Position numbers and translations under genes: made by a program. A model generated the notes under the pieces. That model had not been told where the DNA came from and searched no databases. It worked only from the letters and a program-made list of their open reading frames with translations. From contig CAYUPO010000001.1 in NCBI GenBank assembly GCA_964446685.1, forward strand, positions 38,912-102,911: a DNA stretch of 64,000 nt, in the 5' to 3' direction. Each line of letters begins with the position of its first letter. Position 1 is the first letter of the stretch. This stretch comes from an uncultured Gammaproteobacteria bacterium. Lineage in GTDB: Bacteria; Patescibacteriota; Microgenomatia; Daviesbacterales; UBA10151. Shown here one piece after another: positions 3,287-61,900 of the stretch.

Positions 3287-3424
3287 TACTAATTTCTAAT
3301 TACTAATTTCTAAACAATGACTAATGAATAAATGTCTAAGTAGTTTGGTCATTAGTATTTGGGATTTGTTTAGTAATTTAGAAATAAGCAAAGCTTGCGA
3401 CTTCGCCTTTAGTAATTAGAAATT
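3287..3424. promoter_or_regulatory. Promoter-proximal repeat element (AATTTCTAATTACTAATTTCTAA + AATGACTAATGAATAAA) with inverted partner copies, between the MarR 3' end and the fasciclin start
   Basis: tactaatttctaattactaatttctaaacaatgactaatgaataaatg at ~3287-3330. Inverted copies ttagtaatttagaaat (~3370-3385) and tagtaattagaaatt (~3410-3424). The same composite motif recurs at ~27262-27313 upstream of the MFS gene. Confidence 0.45.
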
Positions 3425-13186: not shown

Positions 13187-14698
13187 ATGAGTCTGGCAAA
13201 TCGTATTTCTGAGAATGGTGTGTTGATTGTTACTTTCTTTCTTTCCTGTGTTGCTCTTTATTTTAGTTTTATTAACAACTATATCCTGACTTACAATGAT
13301 GCAGCTTCTCATTTGAATATTGCCAGGAGAATTTTTGATAATCTGACTCCGGGTATTGCTCAGATTGGGACTGTTTGGTTGCCTTTGCCGCATTTGTTGA
13401 TGTTGCCTTTTGCCTGGAATGACTGGTTGTGGAATACCGGGTTTGCGGGGAGTGTGGTTTCGATGGGGGCTTTTTTGGGGAGTGTTTTTTTTACTTATAA
13501 AACAATTTATCTGGTCAGTAAAAGCTGGGTGGGAGGGATAATTGGGGCTTTGGTGATGGCTTTGAATCCGAATTTTTTGTATATCCAGACAACACCGATG
13601 ACAGAGCCGCTGTTGATCGCTAGCTTTATCATGTCGGTTTATTTTCTGGCTAAATATGTCCAGAACTGGCAGGTGCAATCTTTGCTGATTTCGAGTATTT
13701 TTGTCGCCTGCGCCACCCTGATTCGTTATGACGGCTGGTTTTTGTATGCTTTTCTGACTGCGCTACTGCCAATATGGATCTGGAAGTGGCGAGGGATAAA
13801 AGAAGCTGAGAGTAGTGTGATTTTGTTTTTGTTTATGGGTGGATTTGGGATTGTGACCTGGGTGGTGTGGAACTGGATGATTTTTGGAGATCCGCTTTAT
13901 TTTATTACTGGACCTTACTCGGCTTATGCTCAGCAGAGAGTTTTGAGTCAGGTCGGGCAGCTGCCGACTGAGGGAAATATTTATAACGCTGTTTTGTATT
14001 ATTTTTGGGCGGTTGTCAGTAATAATGGGATGATTTTATTTTTTAGTTCAGCGTTAAGTCTGCTGATTATCCCTTTTTTTGTAAAGCAGAAAAAGTTTTT
14101 AATTCTTTTTATGGCGGCTTTTTCACCAATTTTATTTAATGTAATTGCTTTATTTGTTGGTCAGTCGGCAATGAATGTGCCACAGGCCCCAACAAATCCA
14201 GGAATGTTTAATATCCGCTACGGGATGATGGCGTTGCCTTTTATTGCTTTGAGTCTGGGAATATTAGCTTCAGATAAATGGATGAGATTTCTGGTGATAT
14301 TTGTTTTGCTGCTGCAAAGTTGGGTGTTTTTTAAAGAAGGAATTCCTGTTTCACTGGCGGATGGTATTCATGGTAGAGAGCAGACTTATTATACTGTTGA
14401 AGCCAGTAAATGGCTGAGAGAAAATTATACCGGTGGTCTGATACTGACTAGTCTGGCTTCACATGATGCATTTGTAGCGAGAACTCAGCTGCCGATGAAA
14501 AATTATATTCATGAAGGGACTCAGGATCATTGGTATGACGCTCTGCATGATCCGTCTGAGGAAGTAGAATATATCGCCACCCTATCTTTTCCGCCAGATA
14601 GCGTCTATAAACAACTAGCGACCAATCCGACATTTTTGAAAAAGTATAAGATGATTCATAGTTATGAAAAGTTTGGGATTTATAAGAGGATAGACTAG
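13187..14698 (+). CDS. GT-C fold membrane glycosyltransferase (ArnT/PMT-like), paralog 2 (GC-normal copy)
   Basis: NDAASHLNIARRIFDNLTPGIAQIGTVWLPLPHLLMLPFAWNDWLWNTGFAGS aligns with paralog 1 but at ~40% GC versus ~30% for paralog 1. Confidence 0.55.
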   Translation: MSLANRISENGVLIVTFFLSCVALYFSFINNYILTYNDAASHLNIARRIFDNLTPGIAQIGTVWLPLPHLLMLPFAWNDWLWNTGFAGSVVSMGAFLGSVFFTYKTIYLVSKSWVGGIIGALVMALNPNFLYIQTTPMTEPLLIASFIMSVYFLAKYVQNWQVQSLLISSIFVACATLIRYDGWFLYAFLTALLPIWIWKWRGIKEAESSVILFLFMGGFGIVTWVVWNWMIFGDPLYFITGPYSAYAQQRVLSQVGQLPTEGNIYNAVLYYFWAVVSNNGMILFFSSALSLLIIPFFVKQKKFLILFMAAFSPILFNVIALFVGQSAMNVPQAPTNPGMFNIRYGMMALPFIALSLGILASDKWMRFLVIFVLLLQSWVFFKEGIPVSLADGIHGREQTYYTVEASKWLRENYTGGLILTSLASHDAFVARTQLPMKNYIHEGTQDHWYDALHDPSEEVEYIATLSFPPDSVYKQLATNPTFLKKYKMIHSYEKFGIYKRID

Positions 14699-14726
14699 TA
14701 ACTTTTGTTGTTTGTGGCTCCATCAC

Positions 14727-14863
14727 GTCATTTCGAGTGTAACGAGAAATCCCTGCCTCGAGCGAAGTCGAGAGGTCAAGACTAGATGACCAAGCTCCTG
14801 CTTCGTAAAAAGGAACAAACCTGGTTTTAATCATGAGATCTCTCGCTCCTCGCTCGAGATGAC
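14727..14863. mobile_element. MITE-like GC-rich palindromic element, copy 1 (termini gtcatttcgag ... ctcgagatgac)
   Basis: gtcatttcgagtgtaacgagaaatc...ggttttaatcatgagatctctcgctcctcgctcgagatgac. Same termini at 32619-32708 and 21469-21618 (inverted). Locally ~55% GC in a ~35% GC genome. Confidence 0.6.
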
Positions 14864-14889
14864 ATAGAAATAATTAATATAAAAGCTTT

Positions 14890-16215
14890 ATGAGAAGACA
14901 CGATAATACTACGCAAAAAAAACTGACATCTGTTTTAACATTTATTCTGGTTTTGATTATTCTGCCGGTGGTTTTTGGGACGGTCTTTTCCAGTCAGTCT
15001 GAAAATACTTCTGGACTGTCTACCCCTGTTGTACAGACCTCTCCCTGCATCTGGCAGATCTGTTCGATTGATACCATGAAAACTTCCCGTGATCTGGCCA
15101 GAACCCATTTAAACAATCCGGCATATGATAGTGAAATCCAAAACCAGCTGCGTCTGATTAAACAAACCGGCGCTTCCTATGTCTCGATCACCACTCCCTA
15201 TGATGAGGAATTCAGACCCTATCTAAAAAGGTGGGTCACACTAGCCAGACAGGAGGGCTTAAAGGTCTGGTTTCGGGGCAACTGGTCATCCTGGGAAGGA
15301 TGGTTTGGATATCCCAAAGATATGTCACCTGAACAACATCTGATAAAAAATTCACAATTTATTACCAGTAACACAGCTTTATTTCAAAACGGTGATATTT
15401 TTGATCCCTGTCCGGAATGTGAGAACGCTGCCTTCTGGCCGCAGGACGCGAAAAATCAGGATTATCGCAACTTTTTGCAGACTCAGCAAAAGCAAACCAA
15501 AGAAGACTTTAAAAAAATTAACAAACAGGTAAGGGTTTTACCATCAGTAATTGGTGGAAGAGCCAAAGATGTTTTGGATAAACAATCTTTTGATAGTCTG
15601 GATAAAATCATCAGTATCGATCATTACATCAAACAACCACAGGGAATGGCTGAATATGTTGATTATTTTGATAAAAAGTTTGATACCAAAGTATTGGTCA
15701 GTGAATTTGGAGCACCAATTCCGGATATGAACGGACCGATGGATGAAAAACAACAGGCTGCATTTATCAAAAGTATTTTAGAGACTTTGTATAAAAAAGG
15801 TGACAAAGTGGTCGGATTAAATTACTGGGTTTTATCTGAAGGGACAACTATGCTGGTAAACAATGATGGCTCAACCAGACTGGCCTATGACATAGTAAAG
15901 CAGTATTTTAATCCATCTGTTGTGGAGGGCAGAGTGACTGATTCACTGGATCAGGGAGTGTCAGGGCTGGTGGTAAAAACAACGGATAATGCCTCTGTCA
16001 CAAAAACTAATGAAAATGGCTATTTCCAGCTGCATATTCCACCCCGGAAATTTGAAATAGTAGTTGATGATCCATCTTTTTATTCACAAACAGCTTCACT
16101 TACGACAACTACCAGTGGAGAAAAAATTTCCTATAATTTTTTTGTGGCACCTAAGAATCCGGGAATCTGGTATAAATTAAAACTGTTCTGGAAGAATACC
16201 ATCCACAAAAGCTAG
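14890..16215 (+). CDS. Secreted putative TIM-barrel glycoside hydrolase (GH5-like) with C-terminal carboxypeptidase-regulatory-like (CarboxypepD_reg) domain
   Basis: N-terminal TM/signal. Candidate nucleophile motif LVSEFGAP. C-terminal EGRVTDSLDQGVSGLVVKTTDNASVTKTNENGYFQL resembles the CarboxypepD_reg beta-sandwich. Family assignment tentative. Confidence 0.35.
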   Translation: MRRHDNTTQKKLTSVLTFILVLIILPVVFGTVFSSQSENTSGLSTPVVQTSPCIWQICSIDTMKTSRDLARTHLNNPAYDSEIQNQLRLIKQTGASYVSITTPYDEEFRPYLKRWVTLARQEGLKVWFRGNWSSWEGWFGYPKDMSPEQHLIKNSQFITSNTALFQNGDIFDPCPECENAAFWPQDAKNQDYRNFLQTQQKQTKEDFKKINKQVRVLPSVIGGRAKDVLDKQSFDSLDKIISIDHYIKQPQGMAEYVDYFDKKFDTKVLVSEFGAPIPDMNGPMDEKQQAAFIKSILETLYKKGDKVVGLNYWVLSEGTTMLVNNDGSTRLAYDIVKQYFNPSVVEGRVTDSLDQGVSGLVVKTTDNASVTKTNENGYFQLHIPPRKFEIVVDDPSFYSQTASLTTTTSGEKISYNFFVAPKNPGIWYKLKLFWKNTIHKS

Positions 16216-16230: not shown

Positions 16231-17799
16231 ATGTCCCCCTCTTTCAAATTATTGGTGATCCGAAGCGTGATGTGGCTAAGTTTTTTGGCCTTAATAGGAT
16301 ATATCTATCAGGACAATTTATTAACCTGGTTTAAAACAACTCCTCAGGAATCGGAGAAAGCGAAATTTGCCCGGACACCTTTTGTTAGCGTTGTTGGTAC
16401 AAAACTGTATCTGGAGGGAGAGGAATACCGTTTTACAGGTGTTAATGCTTATCATCTGGCCACTTTAAACGGAGCTAATGCCGGCTGTGGCGGACAGGAA
16501 AATGATCTGACTGGTTTTATGTCAAAACTGCGGCCTTTTTCTGTGATCAGACTGTGGGCATTTCAGGGAGGACAGGCTACCAATGTCACAACCAGACAGA
16601 TCGACTGGTCTGGAATTGACCGGGTGGTGAACTCAGCCCAGCAGAATAATATTAAACTAATACTGACGCTAGCAGATCAATCCGGCACCTGTGATGATGG
16701 CCATTGGAAAGATTTAAGCTGGTATCTGGGTGGATATAAAAAGCCGGTAAATGATTTAAACAACGGCCTGACTCCTCTGTCTTATTTAGACTATGTGAAG
16801 TTGATTGTCTCCAGTTACAAAGACTCCACTGCTATTGCGATGTGGGAAATGATTAATGAACCGGAAGCTTCTGACTGCCCGGCAGGCTTTAAAGGTTCTG
16901 CCTGTTACCAAAAACAGATTTGCCCGGATGAGCAAAAAGCTACCAAAGCCATGCGTAGTTTTTTTGACACTGTGGGGGGAACAATTAAATCAATTGATAA
17001 AAACCATCTGATCAGCTCCGGACTTTTGGGAGACGGACAATGCGGAGCAGTCTGGGAAGATTATCAGTATCTGCATCAAAGTGACATGATAGATGTAGCC
17101 AGCTACCATGATTATCAAAGAGACAATGAACCATTTCCAGGAGATCAGTGGAATGGTCTGCAAAAAAGACTGGATCAGATGAAACAGATTAATAAACCAC
17201 TAATTATTGGTGAAGTCGGAATAAAAGCAGCAAATAATTCATCAGAATGTGTCAGTCTGACAGTCCGCAAAGATAAATTTAAAGCTAAAATGGATGCCCA
17301 GTTTGCAGCAGGTATCGCTGGATTTCTTCCCTGGTCTTTTACAAACGGAAAAACAGTTAACTGTAACTACGATATTATAGATGATGATCCGGTATTGAAA
17401 CTGCTTAATGATTACCCATTAAGCCAAAGCTCTTTCAATAACCCAGTTCCCTCTTCTCTGCTACAATTTTATACTTTTAGTCCTCTCCCCTCACCACTTA
17501 TTCCCTCTCCTTCTCCAGACATGACTCCTCCGACAGCTCCAACCCTTCTTAAGGCTCTATCTGTTACAGCCACCCAAATTAACTTAAGCTGGAAAGCTTC
17601 AACTGATAATAAAGGCATCATCAGATATGACATCTTCCGCAATGGCAGCTATCTGACATCAACCGATCAAACCAGTTTTAATAATACTGGTCTGACGCCC
17701 TCCACTTCCTATTCCTATCAGGTAAAAGGGAAAGATGAAGCAGCAAATAATTCACCTGCTTCAAATACTTTAAATATAACTACTCTTACTCTTAATTAG
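16231..17799 (+). CDS. Secreted GH5-family glycoside hydrolase (mannanase/cellulase-like) with Pro-rich linker and C-terminal fibronectin type III domain
   Basis: GH5 acid/base motif MWEMINEPEAS and nucleophile IIGEVGIK. Linker SPLPSPLIPSPSPDMTPPTAPT. FN3-like LSVTATQINLSWKASTDNKGIIRYDIFRNGSYL. Confidence 0.6.
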   Translation: MSPSFKLLVIRSVMWLSFLALIGYIYQDNLLTWFKTTPQESEKAKFARTPFVSVVGTKLYLEGEEYRFTGVNAYHLATLNGANAGCGGQENDLTGFMSKLRPFSVIRLWAFQGGQATNVTTRQIDWSGIDRVVNSAQQNNIKLILTLADQSGTCDDGHWKDLSWYLGGYKKPVNDLNNGLTPLSYLDYVKLIVSSYKDSTAIAMWEMINEPEASDCPAGFKGSACYQKQICPDEQKATKAMRSFFDTVGGTIKSIDKNHLISSGLLGDGQCGAVWEDYQYLHQSDMIDVASYHDYQRDNEPFPGDQWNGLQKRLDQMKQINKPLIIGEVGIKAANNSSECVSLTVRKDKFKAKMDAQFAAGIAGFLPWSFTNGKTVNCNYDIIDDDPVLKLLNDYPLSQSSFNNPVPSSLLQFYTFSPLPSPLIPSPSPDMTPPTAPTLLKALSVTATQINLSWKASTDNKGIIRYDIFRNGSYLTSTDQTSFNNTGLTPSTSYSYQVKGKDEAANNSPASNTLNITTLTLN

Positions 17800-21440: not shown

Positions 21441-21468
21441 ATTATTATCTAAGTTAACTGTTTGATTT

Positions 21469-21760
21469 GTCATGTCGAGCCCTTCGACTTCGCTCAGGAC
21501 AGGCGAGGAGCGACCCGTCCACATCGCTTCACGAAGTGATGCGGGTGGAGAGATCTAATTATTAAAAACTGGTTAGTTCTTTGTAAGTCTTGAGATTTCT
21601 CACTTCGTTCGAAATGACAGAAAAATAGATTTTGGCGACCCCTTCTGTCATCTCGAGTCCTTCGACTTCGTTCAGGGCCTGAATGACAGAATAAAGCAGA
21701 TTTTGACAACTCCTTCTGTCATCTCGAGCGAGGAGCGAGAGATCTCTAGATTAAAACTAA
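21469..21760. mobile_element. Cluster of three MITE-like elements of the GTCATYTCGAG family (full inverted copy ~21469-21618; 41-bp mini-palindrome ~21647-21687; solo right end ~21718-21757)
   Basis: Reverse strand of 21469-21618 reads gtcatttcgaacgaagtgagaaatc...ctcgacatgac. gtcatctcgagtccttcgacttcgttcagggcctgaatgac is palindromic. gtcatctcgagcgaggagcgagagatctctagattaaaac is near-identical to the rc of the 32.7 kb copy end. ORF 21494..21709 lies entirely inside these repeats. Confidence 0.6.
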
Positions 21761-21798
21761 GGTTATTAATATTTATGCTGGGTCAACTTCTGATTCTT

Positions 21799-22653: not shown

Positions 22654-22732
22654 ATTAGTCTAAATCTTTACCTGATTATACATCCAAAGTAAACAGCTTA
22701 GTCTGGAAGATTTATGATTTTTGATTTTTGAT

Positions 22733-23848
22733 TTATGATTTAAGGTATTTGTTAAAAAAAGAGATCGTGTTTTGCATGGCAGAGTTAAAACTTGTTCCGG
22801 AAATATTGTGTCCGCCATCAAGGTATTCATGTAATTCATGTGGAACGTCTGTCTGGTCTAAAAGTTTATTTAAATTACGACTGTATTCGATAGAGACCAC
22901 ATCATCATTCACTGCATGATTTAACTGAATTGCGCCTTTTAGATCTGTTAAATAATTTGCCGGAGCTACCTGTTTCCAAAACCAACTATCGGACGTAGGA
23001 TCTCCATAAAGTTGTCTTAGCTGCTGTCTTTTTCTTTGTCTTTCAGTATCAGAGGGCTGAGGCTGATAACTTGAATCCTGGATTCCATATTGCTGCATAT
23101 CAGTATAGGTATAAACAGCCCCTGCCCAAATTACGGCTGCCGGTATCTCTGGCATAGCCGCCATCGATCGTAAAGCGACATTCCCAGCCATACTATGCCC
23201 CCATAAACCAATTTTTTGTTTATTCACAAAATCAGCTGACTGCAGAGCTTTATAAGCATTTAAAGTATCTGTGACATAATCCCCGGAATAATAGCCCCCT
23301 CCTGGTTCACCTTCTGAGTTACCATGACCTCTTAAATCAATTTTAAAAACTACAAAGCCACTTCTGGCCAGGGATGCTACATGATCCAAATATCTGGTTT
23401 GAGTCTGATACTGATTTGGTGGAATATAACCATGTATAAAAACGATAGCCGGAAATCCCTCCTCAGGTTTTTCTCCATCAGGAATAGTTAATAAGCCATT
23501 TACTTTCAATCCGTCTGAAGAAAAACTGCTGAGATATGATGTGTAGTTGCCGTTATCAGTAATTTTTTGAAGTTCCCCCAGTGAGCTCTGATAGTTTTTT
23601 TGCCGCAGATAAGGCACTGTCAGCTCTTGGAATGGAAATGGAGTGGCTGATGGAGATATCTTCTCATTGCCCTGCTGAATGGCTGAAGCTAGTTCAGCCT
23701 TGGGAGAGGCCGATTTTGAAACTAACAAGGCAATCATGATCGCACTGACAATCAGTAAAACACAGATTATTCCTCCAATAATCAGTTTTTTATGGCTCGG
23801 GTTTGAGGATGGGAGAGTATCGGGAATCATTTCCGGAGAATTTGGCAT
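22733..23848 (-). CDS. Membrane-anchored alpha/beta hydrolase (S9 peptidase/dienelactone hydrolase-like)
   Basis: N-terminal TM (IIGGIICVLLIVSAIMIALLV). Nucleophile elbow GLWGHSMAGN (GxSxG). Acidic/His residues downstream. Confidence 0.6.
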   Translation of the reverse strand: MPNSPEMIPDTLPSSNPSHKKLIIGGIICVLLIVSAIMIALLVSKSASPKAELASAIQQGNEKISPSATPFPFQELTVPYLRQKNYQSSLGELQKITDNGNYTSYLSSFSSDGLKVNGLLTIPDGEKPEEGFPAIVFIHGYIPPNQYQTQTRYLDHVASLARSGFVVFKIDLRGHGNSEGEPGGGYYSGDYVTDTLNAYKALQSADFVNKQKIGLWGHSMAGNVALRSMAAMPEIPAAVIWAGAVYTYTDMQQYGIQDSSYQPQPSDTERQRKRQQLRQLYGDPTSDSWFWKQVAPANYLTDLKGAIQLNHAVNDDVVSIEYSRNLNKLLDQTDVPHELHEYLDGGHNISGTSFNSAMQNTISFFNKYLKS

Positions 23849-25404: not shown

Positions 25405-25411
25405 ATGATTT

Positions 25412-25439
25412 TAGTCTTTAGTCTTTAGTCTTTAGTCTT
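25412..25439. repeat. Tandem 7-bp repeat TAGTCTT x4
   Basis: ttagtctttagtctttagtctttagtcttt between murJ stop and the 3' end of the convergent gene 25425..25922. Confidence 0.8.
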
Positions 25440-25922
25440 TATTCGGGTTATTATAATAGTTTCTCTTTTTGATCTATCATCTCTGTCATTTCTAAGATTA
25501 ATCCTGCGACGATCATGTTCTAAAGCCCGATCAAAATAACCTCGATCTGGAAAGACATGATGCACAGTATGAAGAGTTTCCTGAATACGATCTAAGTCTT
25601 CAGTAGTTCGATCATTTCGAGCACACCAAGTCCAGCGAGCTATCAAAGCACCTTCCGAAGCTAATGCAACTGCCATTACTCCAAGGGCCGGTTCACGATA
25701 ACCGGCTGCTGCGGTTAAAACTGATGCAGCAATCCCTCCAAAAAAACCGGTCTGTAAAGCAGGGTATAACCATTTATTAAGCCTCAAAGAGCCTCTGATT
25801 TCTGCTTCATCAGCCAATAAGGCTTGTTTATGTGCTTCACGACGATCAGCCCCTCTTTGGGCACTAGCCAATCTTGCTTTCTTGATGTTAGATGGAAGTG
25901 ATGGTTTTTCACGGCGCGGCAT
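25425..25922 (-). CDS. Hypothetical small membrane protein, compositionally atypical (GC ~46%)
   Basis: 165 aa. Arg-rich N-terminus, one or two hydrophobic helices (GFFGGIAASVLTAAAGY), charged C-terminus. GC clearly above flanking genes. Confidence 0.4.
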   Translation of the reverse strand: MPRREKPSLPSNIKKARLASAQRGADRREAHKQALLADEAEIRGSLRLNKWLYPALQTGFFGGIAASVLTAAAGYREPALGVMAVALASEGALIARWTWCARNDRTTEDLDRIQETLHTVHHVFPDRGYFDRALEHDRRRINLRNDRDDRSKRETIIITRIKTKD

Positions 25923-27261: not shown

Positions 27262-27381
27262 AATTTCTAATTACTAATTTCTAATTAACCTAAATAAATC
27301 CAAATGACTAATAAACCACCTTTTTAGACATTTATGATTTAGACCTTATTTAGGAATTAGTATTTAGGGTACTTAGAAATT
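27262..27381. promoter_or_regulatory. Second copy of the AATTTCTAATTACTAATTTCTAA / AATGACTAATAAA composite motif with downstream inverted partner, upstream of the MFS gene start
   Basis: aaatttctaattactaatttctaattaacctaaataaatccaaatgactaataaacc ... aattagtatttagggtacttagaaatt. Shares both words with the 3287-3424 element. Confidence 0.45.
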
Positions 27382-31299: not shown

Positions 31300-31350
31300 T
31301 ATTTGATATTAGATATTGGATATTTGATATTTGATATTTGATATTAATAT
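31300..31350. repeat. Tandem GATATT(T) repeats (~7 units)
   Basis: atttgatattagatattggatatttgatatttgatatttgatattaatatta upstream of the glycerate-kinase-like gene start. Confidence 0.75.
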
Positions 31351-32536: not shown

Positions 32537-32559
32537 ACAGATAACCAATTATCCTATTT

Positions 32560-32708
32560 GTCATTTCGCAAGAAATAGCTTGCTCATTCTAGCTTGACCA
32601 GAATCATTTCAATAAAACGTCATTTGAAGTGTAGTGAGAAATCTTAATACTAGTCAGGAATTAACTTGGTTTTAATCTAGAGATCTCTCGCTCCTCGCTC
32701 GAGATGAC
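32560..32708. mobile_element. MITE-like element copy (partial left-end duplication 32560-32618 + complete ~90-bp element 32619-32708)
   Basis: gtcatttcgcaagaaat... then gtcatttgaagtgtagtgagaaatc...ttggttttaatctagagatctctcgctcctcgctcgagatgac. Termini identical to the 14.7 kb copy. Confidence 0.6.
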
Positions 32709-32731
32709 ACTGGGTCTATCTACTATCTAAA

Positions 32732-58921: not shown

Positions 58922-59030
58922 GAAAAGATTTTAACCAATGATTTATATATTATCAAGTGTTTATATTTTTCGAGTGCAAACGAGAAATTACATTATTTTA
59001 AGGTATTTTCTCACTTAAGTTCGAAAAATA

Positions 59031-59990
59031 TTATTTTTGCTTTAACTGCTGAACTGTTTCTCTGACGTCTTCAACATTCTCTGCTTTCATCAGCTCTACT
59101 CTCATCTCAGATGCTCCGTCAAAATCGTGCAGGTAGGCTTTAAAAAACTTTTTTAAAATTGCAAAATGTTTTGTTTCACCCCAGACTTGATGAAAAAGTT
59201 CGGCATGTTTTAAAAGCAGATCTAGTCTTTCTTCAACTGTCGGCTGATATGTTTCTGGTTGTTTATTAAAAATATATTGGTCATGAAAAATGCCTCTGCC
59301 GATCATCACTCCATCTACTCCGGATTGCTTTATCTTGTTAAAAGCATCAGCGCTACTTATAACATCACCGTTACCAAGAATTACAGTATCCACACCCAAT
59401 TCATCTCTGATCTTAACTGCTTTGGCTATCTCATCCCATTTAGCTGGAAAATGGCTCATTTCTTTGGCAATTCGGCCATGAACTGTCAGACACTGGATAT
59501 CCTGCTTTAACAGGAAAGTGATCCATTCTTCTGTTTTCCATTCTTTGAAACCGCATCTGGTTTTAACGCTGACTGGTAAATCCCCTGCCCCATCTTTCAC
59601 AGCCTGAATTATCTGACCAGCTAATTCCGGATTATCTATCAAAGCACTACAGCAACCTCTTTTTGTAATACCTCTTTCAGGACATCCCATATTAATATCG
59701 ACACCGTCAAAACCTAGTTCTTTGACCATTGCCGCAACTTCCCTGAATGCTGCCAAATCTTTTCCCCAAATTTGGGCTATCAACGGCTTTTCATCTTCAG
59801 TAAATTTAAAACGGTTTATTACTTTGTCGGCTCCTTTTGATGTTAACCCTTCTACTGAAGTAAACTCTGTAAACATCACATCAGGTCTGGCGCATGATGT
59901 CACAATCCGCCTAAAAACAGTATCAGTCACTTCATCTAAAGGGGCTAAAGCAAAGATTGGTTTTGGTAATGTATTCCAGAAGTTTTTCAT
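59031..59990 (-). CDS. tRNA-dihydrouridine synthase (Dus family)
   Basis: FALAPLDEVTDTVFRR, GFDGVDINMGCP, catalytic Cys region KRGCCSAL. Confidence 0.8.
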   Translation of the reverse strand: MKNFWNTLPKPIFALAPLDEVTDTVFRRIVTSCARPDVMFTEFTSVEGLTSKGADKVINRFKFTEDEKPLIAQIWGKDLAAFREVAAMVKELGFDGVDINMGCPERGITKRGCCSALIDNPELAGQIIQAVKDGAGDLPVSVKTRCGFKEWKTEEWITFLLKQDIQCLTVHGRIAKEMSHFPAKWDEIAKAVKIRDELGVDTVILGNGDVISSADAFNKIKQSGVDGVMIGRGIFHDQYIFNKQPETYQPTVEERLDLLLKHAELFHQVWGETKHFAILKKFFKAYLHDFDGASEMRVELMKAENVEDVRETVQQLKQK

Positions 59991-60032
59991 ATTGTTAATT
60001 ATACCTAAAAAAGAAATTTAATGCCTATTTAT

Positions 60033-60099
60033 GTCATCCCGAGCGAGGTATCCGAGTTGAGGGATCCCTCCACTTCGCTTTCGCTTTGGTCGGGATGAC
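60033..60099. mobile_element. Short palindromic MITE-like element (gtcatcccgagcgagg ... ctttggtcgggatgac)
   Basis: Imperfect 16-bp terminal inverted repeats around a 35-bp GC-rich core. Related to the GTCATYTCGAG family. Confidence 0.5.
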
Positions 60100-60127
60100 A
60101 AAGGGGTGTGATTCGCTGATTGCTTAA

Positions 60128-61824: not shown

Positions 61825-61900
61825 TCTGCAAATTTAACAGATAGCGGGTTATTTGTATAGATTCCCGCTTGCGTGGGAATGACGATACGCTGGTGATGGT

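Follow-up and report, generated by a model that had tools for sequence, protein, structure and literature searches.

What are the GC-rich palindromic elements that recur in the intergenic gaps of this 64-kb stretch of DNA (contig CAYUPO010000001.1, assembly GCA_964446685.1; the whole stretch analysed is hereafter called the window), which stems from a Patescibacteria-type bacterium of the candidate phyla radiation (CPR)? An earlier note on the sequence had listed six such elements, described them as resembling either miniature inverted-repeat transposable elements (MITEs) or repetitive extragenic palindromes (REPs), and assigned them to no named family. Our analysis indicated that a name can be given: the elements are built from short tagged hairpins that correspond to the CGTC/TGTC-tagged REPs of Di Nocera, De Gregorio and Rocco 2013 (PMC3733652), which are the NTS/Ssn-related motifs of Chenal et al. 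2025 (PMC11893778). The feature is real and is largely explained by the family characterised in these two studies. What appear to be new, relative to the text available from them, are the CPR host, a conserved stem variant with a tandem G.A mismatch that is common across phyla but missed by the published pattern, and rapid remodelling between near-identical genomes.

The repeat is a tagged hairpin unit of about 27-30 nt that is present in at least 12 copies across six intergenic gaps of the window (Table 1). Searches for GTCATYYCGAG with at most one mismatch returned 11 matches against 1.9 expected, a number that none of 100 shuffles got to; nine of these matches are element termini, and those at 25611 and 34005, inside open reading frames (ORFs), are probably due to chance. 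A stricter hairpin finder (GTCAT, 5-bp AT-stem, closing C) returned 10 matches, two of them AT-rich false positives, against 1.7 +/- 1.35 in 200 shuffles. All six elements of the earlier note were present at the positions it gave, and the near-identical termini it had noticed are conserved once aligned, with the 29-nt terminus GTCATCTCGAGCGAGGAGCGAGAGATCTC identical at 14835-14863 (minus strand), 32680-32708 (minus strand) and 21718-21746 (plus strand). Six was nonetheless too low a total, with further copies found at 61856-61884 (minus strand), 32559-32579, 32618-32645, 58963-59031 and 14752-14775, and the copy correctly located at 21718 ends later than had been proposed, at about 21767. Neither is the GC content uniformly ~55%, as the listed elements range from 38 to 58% and the degenerate pair is at 25%, in a window of 36.8%. 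All copies are intergenic, as had been observed, and their flanking genes are co-directional or convergent, never divergent.

Read on the strand that carries GTCAT, a unit starts with an unpaired YGTC tag, followed by a stem that opens with A-T and T-A, continues with two variable pairs and a C-G pair, and is then broken by a conserved tandem G.A/A.G mismatch, the core being 5'-CGAG/CGAG-3'. One or two pairs beyond the mismatch lead to a loop of 3-5 nt, and the 3' end closes with AT followed by an unpaired C and a Y (an ATC-Y tail). The A-T, T-A opening is found in every headed unit of the window, each of which reads GTC-AT...AT-C. The tag is CGTC at 14726, 32618 and 61884 (minus strand) and TGTC at every other headed unit, and the tails read C-Y-C or C-T-A, with a C right after the stem in all units. 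Long interiors were observed in the units at 60033, 60099 and 21469.

These units occur solo, as tags-outward pairs 40-90 bp apart and in mosaic clusters, and in both orientations relative to the flanking genes. Three elements of about 140 bp (137-150 bp) consist of an A-type and a B-type unit with their tags outward and a partly conserved spacer between them, which is conserved beside unit B and reads AACYTGGTTTTAATC. The anatomy and the arrangements thus agree with the suggestion of a REP-like family with conserved ends, variable middles, solo ends and nested or tandem copies.

According to the 2013 survey, the superfamily of CGTC-tagged REPs comprises the families CGTC-1 to CGTC-4, counts Neisseria dRS3, Rickettsia RPE-4 and RPE-6 and Wolbachia CGTC-4 among its members, and has hosts in the Proteobacteria, Chlorobi, Bacteroidetes, Spirochaetes and Thermotogae (PMC3733652). 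The tag is CGTC, with TGTC in many repeats and CCTC allowed; the stems open with AT and have 8-9 bp, the loops have 4-5 nt and the 3-nt tail has the consensus CCA. These repeats are mostly inverted dimers with spacers of 20-100 bp, located between co-directional or convergent ORFs and with no linked transposase (PMC3733652). The window units share the unpaired CGTC/TGTC tag, the A-T/T-A opening and short, unpaired tails with C first. As to stem and loop length, the NTS-like copy has a stem of 8 positions with one mismatch and a 4-nt loop and unit B a stem of 9 positions that includes the G.A/A.G tandem and a 5-nt loop, unlike the 3-nt loop of unit A and the long interiors at 60033, 60099 and 21469. 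They are likewise mostly inverted dimers, often heterodimers with partly conserved spacers, lying between co-directional or convergent genes and with no adjacent transposase. Unlike the repeats described in that survey, the main window units have a conserved tandem G.A/A.G that breaks the stem, loop lengths in the window extend from 3 nt to over 20 nt, CYC or CTA replaces CCA in the tail, and the host is of the Patescibacteria type. Altogether, the head, the stem opening, the tail, the dimer form and the location place the window units in this family.

In 2025 the CGTC/TGTC-tagged REPs were renamed Ssn-related motifs (SRM), and the NTS, CGTCATTCCCGCGMAVGCGGGAATCYRG, was described as the oriented form of dRS3 (PMC11893778). 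It is bound by SsnA, a 94-aa single-domain GIY-YIG protein of CDD family cd10448, which cuts a few nt upstream; Ssn acts on single-stranded DNA (ssDNA) only and on the tagged strand only, not on RNA, and binding and cutting depend critically on the three bases that precede the palindrome and on the C that follows it (PMC11893778). The ssn genes are typically bracketed by SRMs, 71% of them having SRMs nearby, and an Ssn homologue was reported for 81% of the genomes that carry over 200 SRMs (PMC11893778). In agreement with this description, the window units have GTC directly 5' of the palindrome and C directly 3' of it, and their tags-outward layout is that of NTS-ssnA-NTS. The copy at 61884-61856 is identical to the NTS at 26 of 28 positions, i.e., it has two substitutions where the NTS criterion allows at most one mismatch, and the other units are far from the NTS. 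As in Neisseria dRS3 and the Neisseria intergenic mosaic elements (NIMEs), there are clusters of short repeat blocks bounded by hairpin units (21468-21767), and the core ATTCCC-N8-GGGAAT is present once, at 61860-61879. The remaining copies differ from these Neisseria repeats in having ATTTC, ATCTC, ATCCC or ATGTC stems, and no phage or IS110 association was seen.

The tandem-G.A form was also found in other genomes. The pattern GTCATYTCGAGN{5,7}CGAGARATC had matches in 25 viral contigs and the broader pattern GTCATYYCGAGN{5,7}CGAGRRATC in at least 120 genome stretches which, by record title, represent more than 15 phyla among the matches listed, including Komeili-, Uhr- and Berkelbacteria and one Nanoarchaeota metagenome-assembled genome (MAG). 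The family proposed in the earlier note is not confined to the window: copies recur in close relatives, and units of the same type in these genome stretches and viral contigs. In addition, 148 units were sampled from other genomes by a pattern that leaves two stem positions free on each side, and 143 of them were Watson-Crick paired at both free positions, compared to 52.6 expected if the positions were independent. It is because of this covariation, and not because of folding energy, that the hairpin is supported. The base before GTC was T in 110 and C in 25 of the 148 units, and the base after the tail C was T in 112 and C in 32. An inverted head followed within 150 nt past the tail in 80 of 135 sampled units (median 62 nt) and a direct head in only 17, so that tags-outward dimers are the usual form. 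The context 5'-Y-GA-R-3' is favoured for tandem sheared G.A in DNA. The exact 27-mer of unit B had no match in 185,579 species-representative genomes and was found in JGI metagenomes on one unrelated contig (L147), there with a tail-overlapping dimer; judging from these searches, the exact unit-B sequence is private to the lineage.

Two of these occurrences are described here for their own sake. On the Dehalococcoidia chromosome OZ244885.1 (L040, 6247-7141), seven variant units lie within ~900 bp with a period of ~329 bp and alternating strands, which is a tandem array of composite elements. On the Nanoarchaeota MAG contig JAHIPG010000372.1 (L083), a perfect GTCATTCCGAGCGTAGCGAGGAATC unit at 2730-2754 is accompanied by a second tagged hairpin, GTCATGCTGAACTTGTTTCAGCATC, on the same archaeal-binned contig; this could reflect either mis-binning or a real archaeal occurrence.

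Comparisons with close relatives, a check that the earlier note had proposed, revealed that the copies vary. The stretches compared were from a 99% relative (L150-152; Logan SRR21621035/36/38), a 90% relative (L162 and L163; Logan ERR8482639/38) and ~85% relatives (L148, L149 and L153-156, from GCA_964636275.1, Logan assembly SRR16481186 and JGI samples). The 99% relative has the same three units, in identical copies, at the same three gaps as the window between 58.9 and 61.9 kb. No unit was detected in the ~85% relatives at the three orthologous gaps of 58.9-61.9 kb, nor anywhere in ~41 kb of their sequence. In the 90% relative, both the 14727 element and the 21469 cluster occupy the sites they have in the window. 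Two segments of the window are missing from it: the headless hairpin of 24 nt directly behind the ATC of unit A, which amounts to the insertion or deletion of a tagless hairpin core, and 71 bp that comprise a double-headed mini element and a duplicated spacer. Additionally, the interior of the left 21469 unit is wholly replaced (window 21481-21547 versus L162 11130-11200) between flanks that are ~95% identical, and the loop region of this unit behaves as a hot spot of exchange or insertion. The changes seen are hairpin-sized indels and exchanges within existing sites, not clean transposon-like insertions. Because of the differences between the 99%, 90% and ~85% relatives, the repeat population is considered young and still changing.

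A GIY-YIG ORF was found in 4 of 120 stretches among the matches listed. In L050 (Kiritimatiellae) and L144 (Terriglobia), a single-domain GIY-YIG gene of ~95 aa (PF01541) is bracketed on both sides by tags-outward CGAG...CGAG units, and in L146 (Flavobacteriales) a tags-outward pair of units lies just upstream of a ~95-aa GIY-YIG gene (PF01541). When viral contigs were searched with the proteins of these loci as seeds, four loci were obtained, and in three of the four the gene is bracketed on both sides by NTS- or ATTGC-type units. The L157 protein is 56% identical to that of L144, and the units on either side of its gene are of the NTS type and conform to the published SRM pattern. No curated NCBIfam model names the Ssn-like proteins; the nearest solved structures are those of the UPF0213 GIY-YIG proteins 1ZG2 and 1YWL.

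Altogether, we consider it probable that the window elements are a local population of CGTC/TGTC-tagged hairpin repeats, akin to Neisseria dRS3/NTS and to the Ssn-related motifs in general, with a cognate Ssn; this degree of confidence reflects the 81% frequency of Ssn homologues among genomes with over 200 SRMs (PMC11893778). The partner enzyme, which we infer from the literature and from other genomes, would be encoded outside the 64 kb and would bind and cut the units as ssDNA. In the proposed mechanism, the tagged strand would fold whenever replication, repair or the uptake of DNA leaves it single-stranded. The folded strand would then be bound by an Ssn-family nuclease, small and with GIY-YIG as its single domain, whose gene would lie elsewhere in the genome, and this nuclease would cut a few nt 5' of the tag. 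The tags-outward pairs would then correspond to an SRM-ssn-SRM gene unit minus the gene, i.e., to a non-autonomous form.

Several observations weigh against this interpretation. Neither an Ssn nor any other GIY-YIG gene was detected in the 64-kb window or in ~60 kb from relatives with a motif regular expression, with two home-made hidden Markov models (HMMs) run on six-frame translations (the second GIY-YIG model with filters off and E up to 50) or with Pfam. The published degenerate SRM search sequence, HGTCWYN(0-2)YYVSBRHN(0-5)WNVSBRGN(0-2)RNCYNB, which is an operational pattern and not a mechanistic criterion, matches nothing in the window and none of the 148 sampled tandem-G.A units, and the positive controls (NTS, NTSvar and the L157 and L158 units) do match; the main units fail the pattern because of the A in the conserved GA step. 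The available text of the two key papers (PMC3733652, PMC11893778) reports no member of the family in Patescibacteria. The 2013 survey threw out repeats with more than one stem mismatch (PMC3733652); since these were pruned and the SRM pattern excludes the A of the GA step, the tandem-G.A form could have been missed by both studies. The link of this variant to the enzyme draws on three loci that were selected by pattern, and binding and cleavage of the variant by Ssn are predicted by analogy. Finally, the folding energy of single units as ssDNA is only -1 to -5 kcal/mol and does not surpass that of shuffled sequences; nearest-neighbour energy parameters give no credit to sheared G.A pairs, and folding energy was not used as evidence.

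The elements may instead act at the RNA level, as transcribed hairpins of the 3' untranslated region that stabilise mRNA or end transcription, or as a small RNA gene. Every copy is situated downstream of genes, in a gap whose flanking ORFs are co-directional or convergent, many REPs have been argued to act as RNA (PMC3733652), and the RNA folding that the earlier note had recommended indicated that RNA of whole composite elements does fold more stably than shuffled sequences (z-scores of -2 to -4.5). We nevertheless consider such a role unlikely, given that no unit is followed by a T-tract, that the 24 terminator-like sites between 14 and 33 kb all lie away from the elements and that the units are found in both orientations relative to the flanking genes. 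Rfam also provided no relevant match, neither for the whole window at gathering score nor for 14650-14950 and the whole window at E up to 10, where only unrelated chance matches were obtained, and the strand polarity given by the conserved unpaired tag and tail matches an ssDNA enzyme that does not act on RNA (PMC11893778). An RNA role could exist as a secondary effect. The layout of inverted doublets with a spacer, solo remnants, intergenic location and vertical persistence would also fit the REPIN-RAYT system, in which inverted REP doublets are the replicating unit, solo REPs are remnants and a single-copy enzyme acting on ssDNA hairpins has been proposed (Bertels and Rainey 2011, PMC3116915). 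The units would then be REPs that depend for their movement on an IS200-like tyrosine (HUH) transposase acting in trans and encoded by a single-copy gene, by the same logic of ssDNA hairpin recognition. This is very unlikely here, as that system has a GTAG tag and an HUH tyrosine transposase, in contrast to the YGTC tag and the GIY-YIG nuclease proposed for the window (PMC3116915). Furthermore, RAYT genes occur in many CGTC-bearing species, with none found to be flanked by CGTC repeats (PMC3733652), and the gene bracketed by tandem-G.A units in the sampled genomes encodes a GIY-YIG protein and not a RAYT. Pfam searches of essentially all sizeable window ORFs identified glycosyltransferases, transporters, purine genes and similar functions, and no transposase, no IS200-like tyrosine (Y1)/RAYT transposase and no GIY-YIG domain.

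The absence of a transposase from the window ORFs also bears on the MITE interpretation of the earlier note, in which the elements would be internally deleted DDE-type insertion sequences moved by a transposase that shares their terminal inverted repeats. The composite elements, at 137-150 bp with inverted termini and variable cores, have the appearance of such derivatives, but no target-site duplication was found at any of the four composite elements, whose flanks read T/GTCAT...ATGAC/A with unrelated sequence outside. Moreover, the termini are autonomous, self-folding hairpin units in their own right and are also found solo, both in the window and in many phyla; within one element they belong to different subtypes (ATTTC versus ATCTC), and the differences from the 90% relative are hairpin-sized indels inside elements instead of excision or insertion of whole elements. 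A MITE origin is not supported and is considered extremely unlikely. In Neisseria, dRS3 repeats are reported to be integration targets for IS110-type elements and filamentous phages, which would make the window units passive landing pads, kept mainly for such integration. Hypervariable unit interiors (loops), one of them with long inserts (21481-21547), and mosaic clusters like those of Neisseria are observed here and speak for it, but Pfam searches of the window ORFs found no IS110-type or phage genes in or near the elements, and landing pads would explain the use of the sites, not their origin or conservation; this explanation is considered highly improbable. Among other candidates, a hammerhead-like ribozyme (GUC next to a helix) was rejected by eye, having no CUGAUGA/GAAA core, and attC sites, CRISPR repeats and dif sites were rejected on their consensus sequences.

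Returning to the interpretation as Ssn-related hairpins, it can be extended in a way that we regard as speculative and rather doubtful. The CGAG...CGAG units may form a distinct, pan-phylum specificity class of Ssn sites, in which the two covarying stem pairs (TT, CT, CC, TC, GT) would set the choice of nuclease; several classes might coexist in this small CPR genome, and the ~140 bp elements might be internally deleted SRM-ssn-SRM units. In favour of the last point, the letters that adjoin unit B (ATC-TC-ATG-ATT-AAA-ACC...) are laid out like the beginning of the L050 ssn gene. That this conserved spacer (MIKT(K/R)F...) is the remnant of an Ssn N-terminus found no detectable HMM signal, and this idea is kept as speculation only.

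Table 1. Hairpin units, spacers and associated segments identified in the window, with the observations on which each entry is based.
Feature	Position	Strand	Basis and remarks
Unit A of the 14727 element, cGTCATTTCGAGTGTAACGAGAAATC	14726-14751	+	CGTC tag; ATTTC/GAAAT stem; GA/AG tandem mismatch; G-C and T-A pairs; 3-nt loop (GTA); conserved in 90% relative L162
Headless 24-nt hairpin CCTGCCTCGAGCGAAGTCGAGAGG, without GTCAT tag, directly after the ATC tail of unit A	14752-14775	+	Not in the otherwise collinear L162 element
Spacer of the 14727 element; right part AAACCTGGTTTTAATCAT common to other long elements	14776-14834	.	Repeat families, alignment
Unit B, tGTCATCTCGAGCGAGGAGCGAGAGATCTC	14835-14864	-	ATCTC/GAGAT stem of 9 positions including the GA/AG tandem; G-C and C-G pairs; GAGGA loop; 29-mer identical at two other sites
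Left unit of the 21469 element: B-like head and tail (GTCATGTCGAG ... GAGAGATCT), long hypervariable interior	21468-21556	+	Interior unrelated in L162/L163, flanks ~95% identical
Spacer of the 21469 element, holds ATTATTAAAAACTGGTTAG, related to the conserved spacer beside unit B	21557-21591	.	Alignment
A-type unit tGTCATTTCGAACGAAGTGAGAAATCTC of the 21469 element	21592-21619	-	Hairpin anatomy
71-bp segment: double-headed mini element (21646-21688, GTCAT...ATGAC) and duplicated ~30-nt spacer	21641-21711	+	Not in L162/L163; direct repeat
Solo B unit with conserved adjoining TAGATTAAAACTAAGGTTATT	21717-21767	+	Inverted-repeat families
Short tagged hairpin tGTCATTTCGCAAGAAATAGC, inside the 32560 element	32559-32579	+	Hairpin anatomy
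Degenerate A-type unit cGTCATTTGAAGTGTAGTGAGAAATCTT, inside the 32560 element	32618-32645	+	Inverted-repeat pair
B unit (32680-32709) with conserved spacer AATTAACTTGGTTTTAATCTA	32659-32709	-	Direct repeat 91% identical; inverted repeat 94% complementary
Headless AT-decayed pair of A-type units, TTTTTCGAGTGCAAACGAGAAAT and inverse	58963-59031	.	Inverted repeat
Two ATCCC-type units, tags outward, tails overlapping (60033-60068 on +, 60099-60061 on -)	60032-60100	.	Identical in 99% relative L150; absent in ~85% relatives
NTS/dRS3-like unit CGTCATTCCCACGCAAGCGGGAATCTAT	61856-61884	-	8-position stem, one mismatch, GCAA loop; 2 substitutions from the 28-nt NTS consensus

Regarding the genes of the window, the named homologues of its Dus and DUF1704/MATCAP proteins are from Dojkabacteria, Daviesbacteria, Levybacteria and WWE3, which identifies the host as a CPR bacterium of the Microgenomates type. 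An ORF of 128 aa at 14448-14834 (minus strand) begins at an ATG two bases after unit B, crosses the 14727 element and continues antisense to the gene upstream. This ORF is in all likelihood spurious and an example of GC-rich repeats seeding false gene calls. In the surface-glycan cluster, a GH5 cellulase-fn3 gene at 16231-17799 is replaced in the 90% relative by three others, one for Polysacc_synt and two for family-2 glycosyltransferases (L162 4335-7387). A 165-aa Arg/Asp-rich ORF at 25425-25922 (minus strand) has no Pfam match, and two different small ORFs are found there in the 90% relative. On the opposite strand, tagged heads (at 21468-21473, 21646-21651 and elsewhere) read ATGACA, which matches the -35 hexamer at five of six positions, and two outward-facing promoter-like sites use this ATGACA; promoter-like sites overall were not enriched (62 versus 55 expected).

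The intergenic gaps also contain tandem arrays with units of 7 nt, a different unit in each: TAATTTC x7.4 at 2292-2343, CTAATTT x3.6 at 3289-3313, GATTTAT x4.9 at 22709-22742, TTTAGTC x4.6 at 25410-25441 and TATTTGA x6.6 at 31300-31345. Most of them sit just upstream of minus-strand genes, and their copy number and even their unit differ in the 90% and ~85% relatives (e.g., ACGCTTT, TAAATCG and AATCCAAT arrays at corresponding gaps). They look like a second, hypervariable intergenic repeat system of this lineage. Adjoining two of these arrays is a pair of 78-nt inverted repeats (3296-3373 and 27290-27367), 77% complementary and 24 kb apart, located upstream of two different genes.

These results have practical consequences for annotation and assembly. 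GC-rich hairpins in AT-rich CPR genomes create spurious ORFs, such as the one at 14448-14834, and they break short-read assemblies, as in the Logan contig L161 of the same strain, which stops inside the 21469 cluster. Additionally, since the SRM pattern finds none of the 148 units of a variant that occurs in more than 15 phyla among the matches listed and in viral contigs, the numbers given at present for Ssn sites, and likewise for 'orphan' Ssn genes, are probably too low. If it is true that two stem pairs set the specificity, they would constitute a simple code for engineering ssDNA cutters, and if the ~140 bp elements are deleted SRM-ssn-SRM units, they would be the first direct sign of Ssn units that are mobile now or were so recently and that leave non-autonomous derivatives. 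The sole function demonstrated for Ssn so far is the control of incoming single-stranded DNA, in Neisseria. For CPR bacteria, whose genomes are tiny, a reliance on the uptake of DNA has been suggested, and the dense, fast-evolving sites that an ssDNA nuclease may recognise in them would make these organisms a natural place to test the role of Ssn outside Neisseria.

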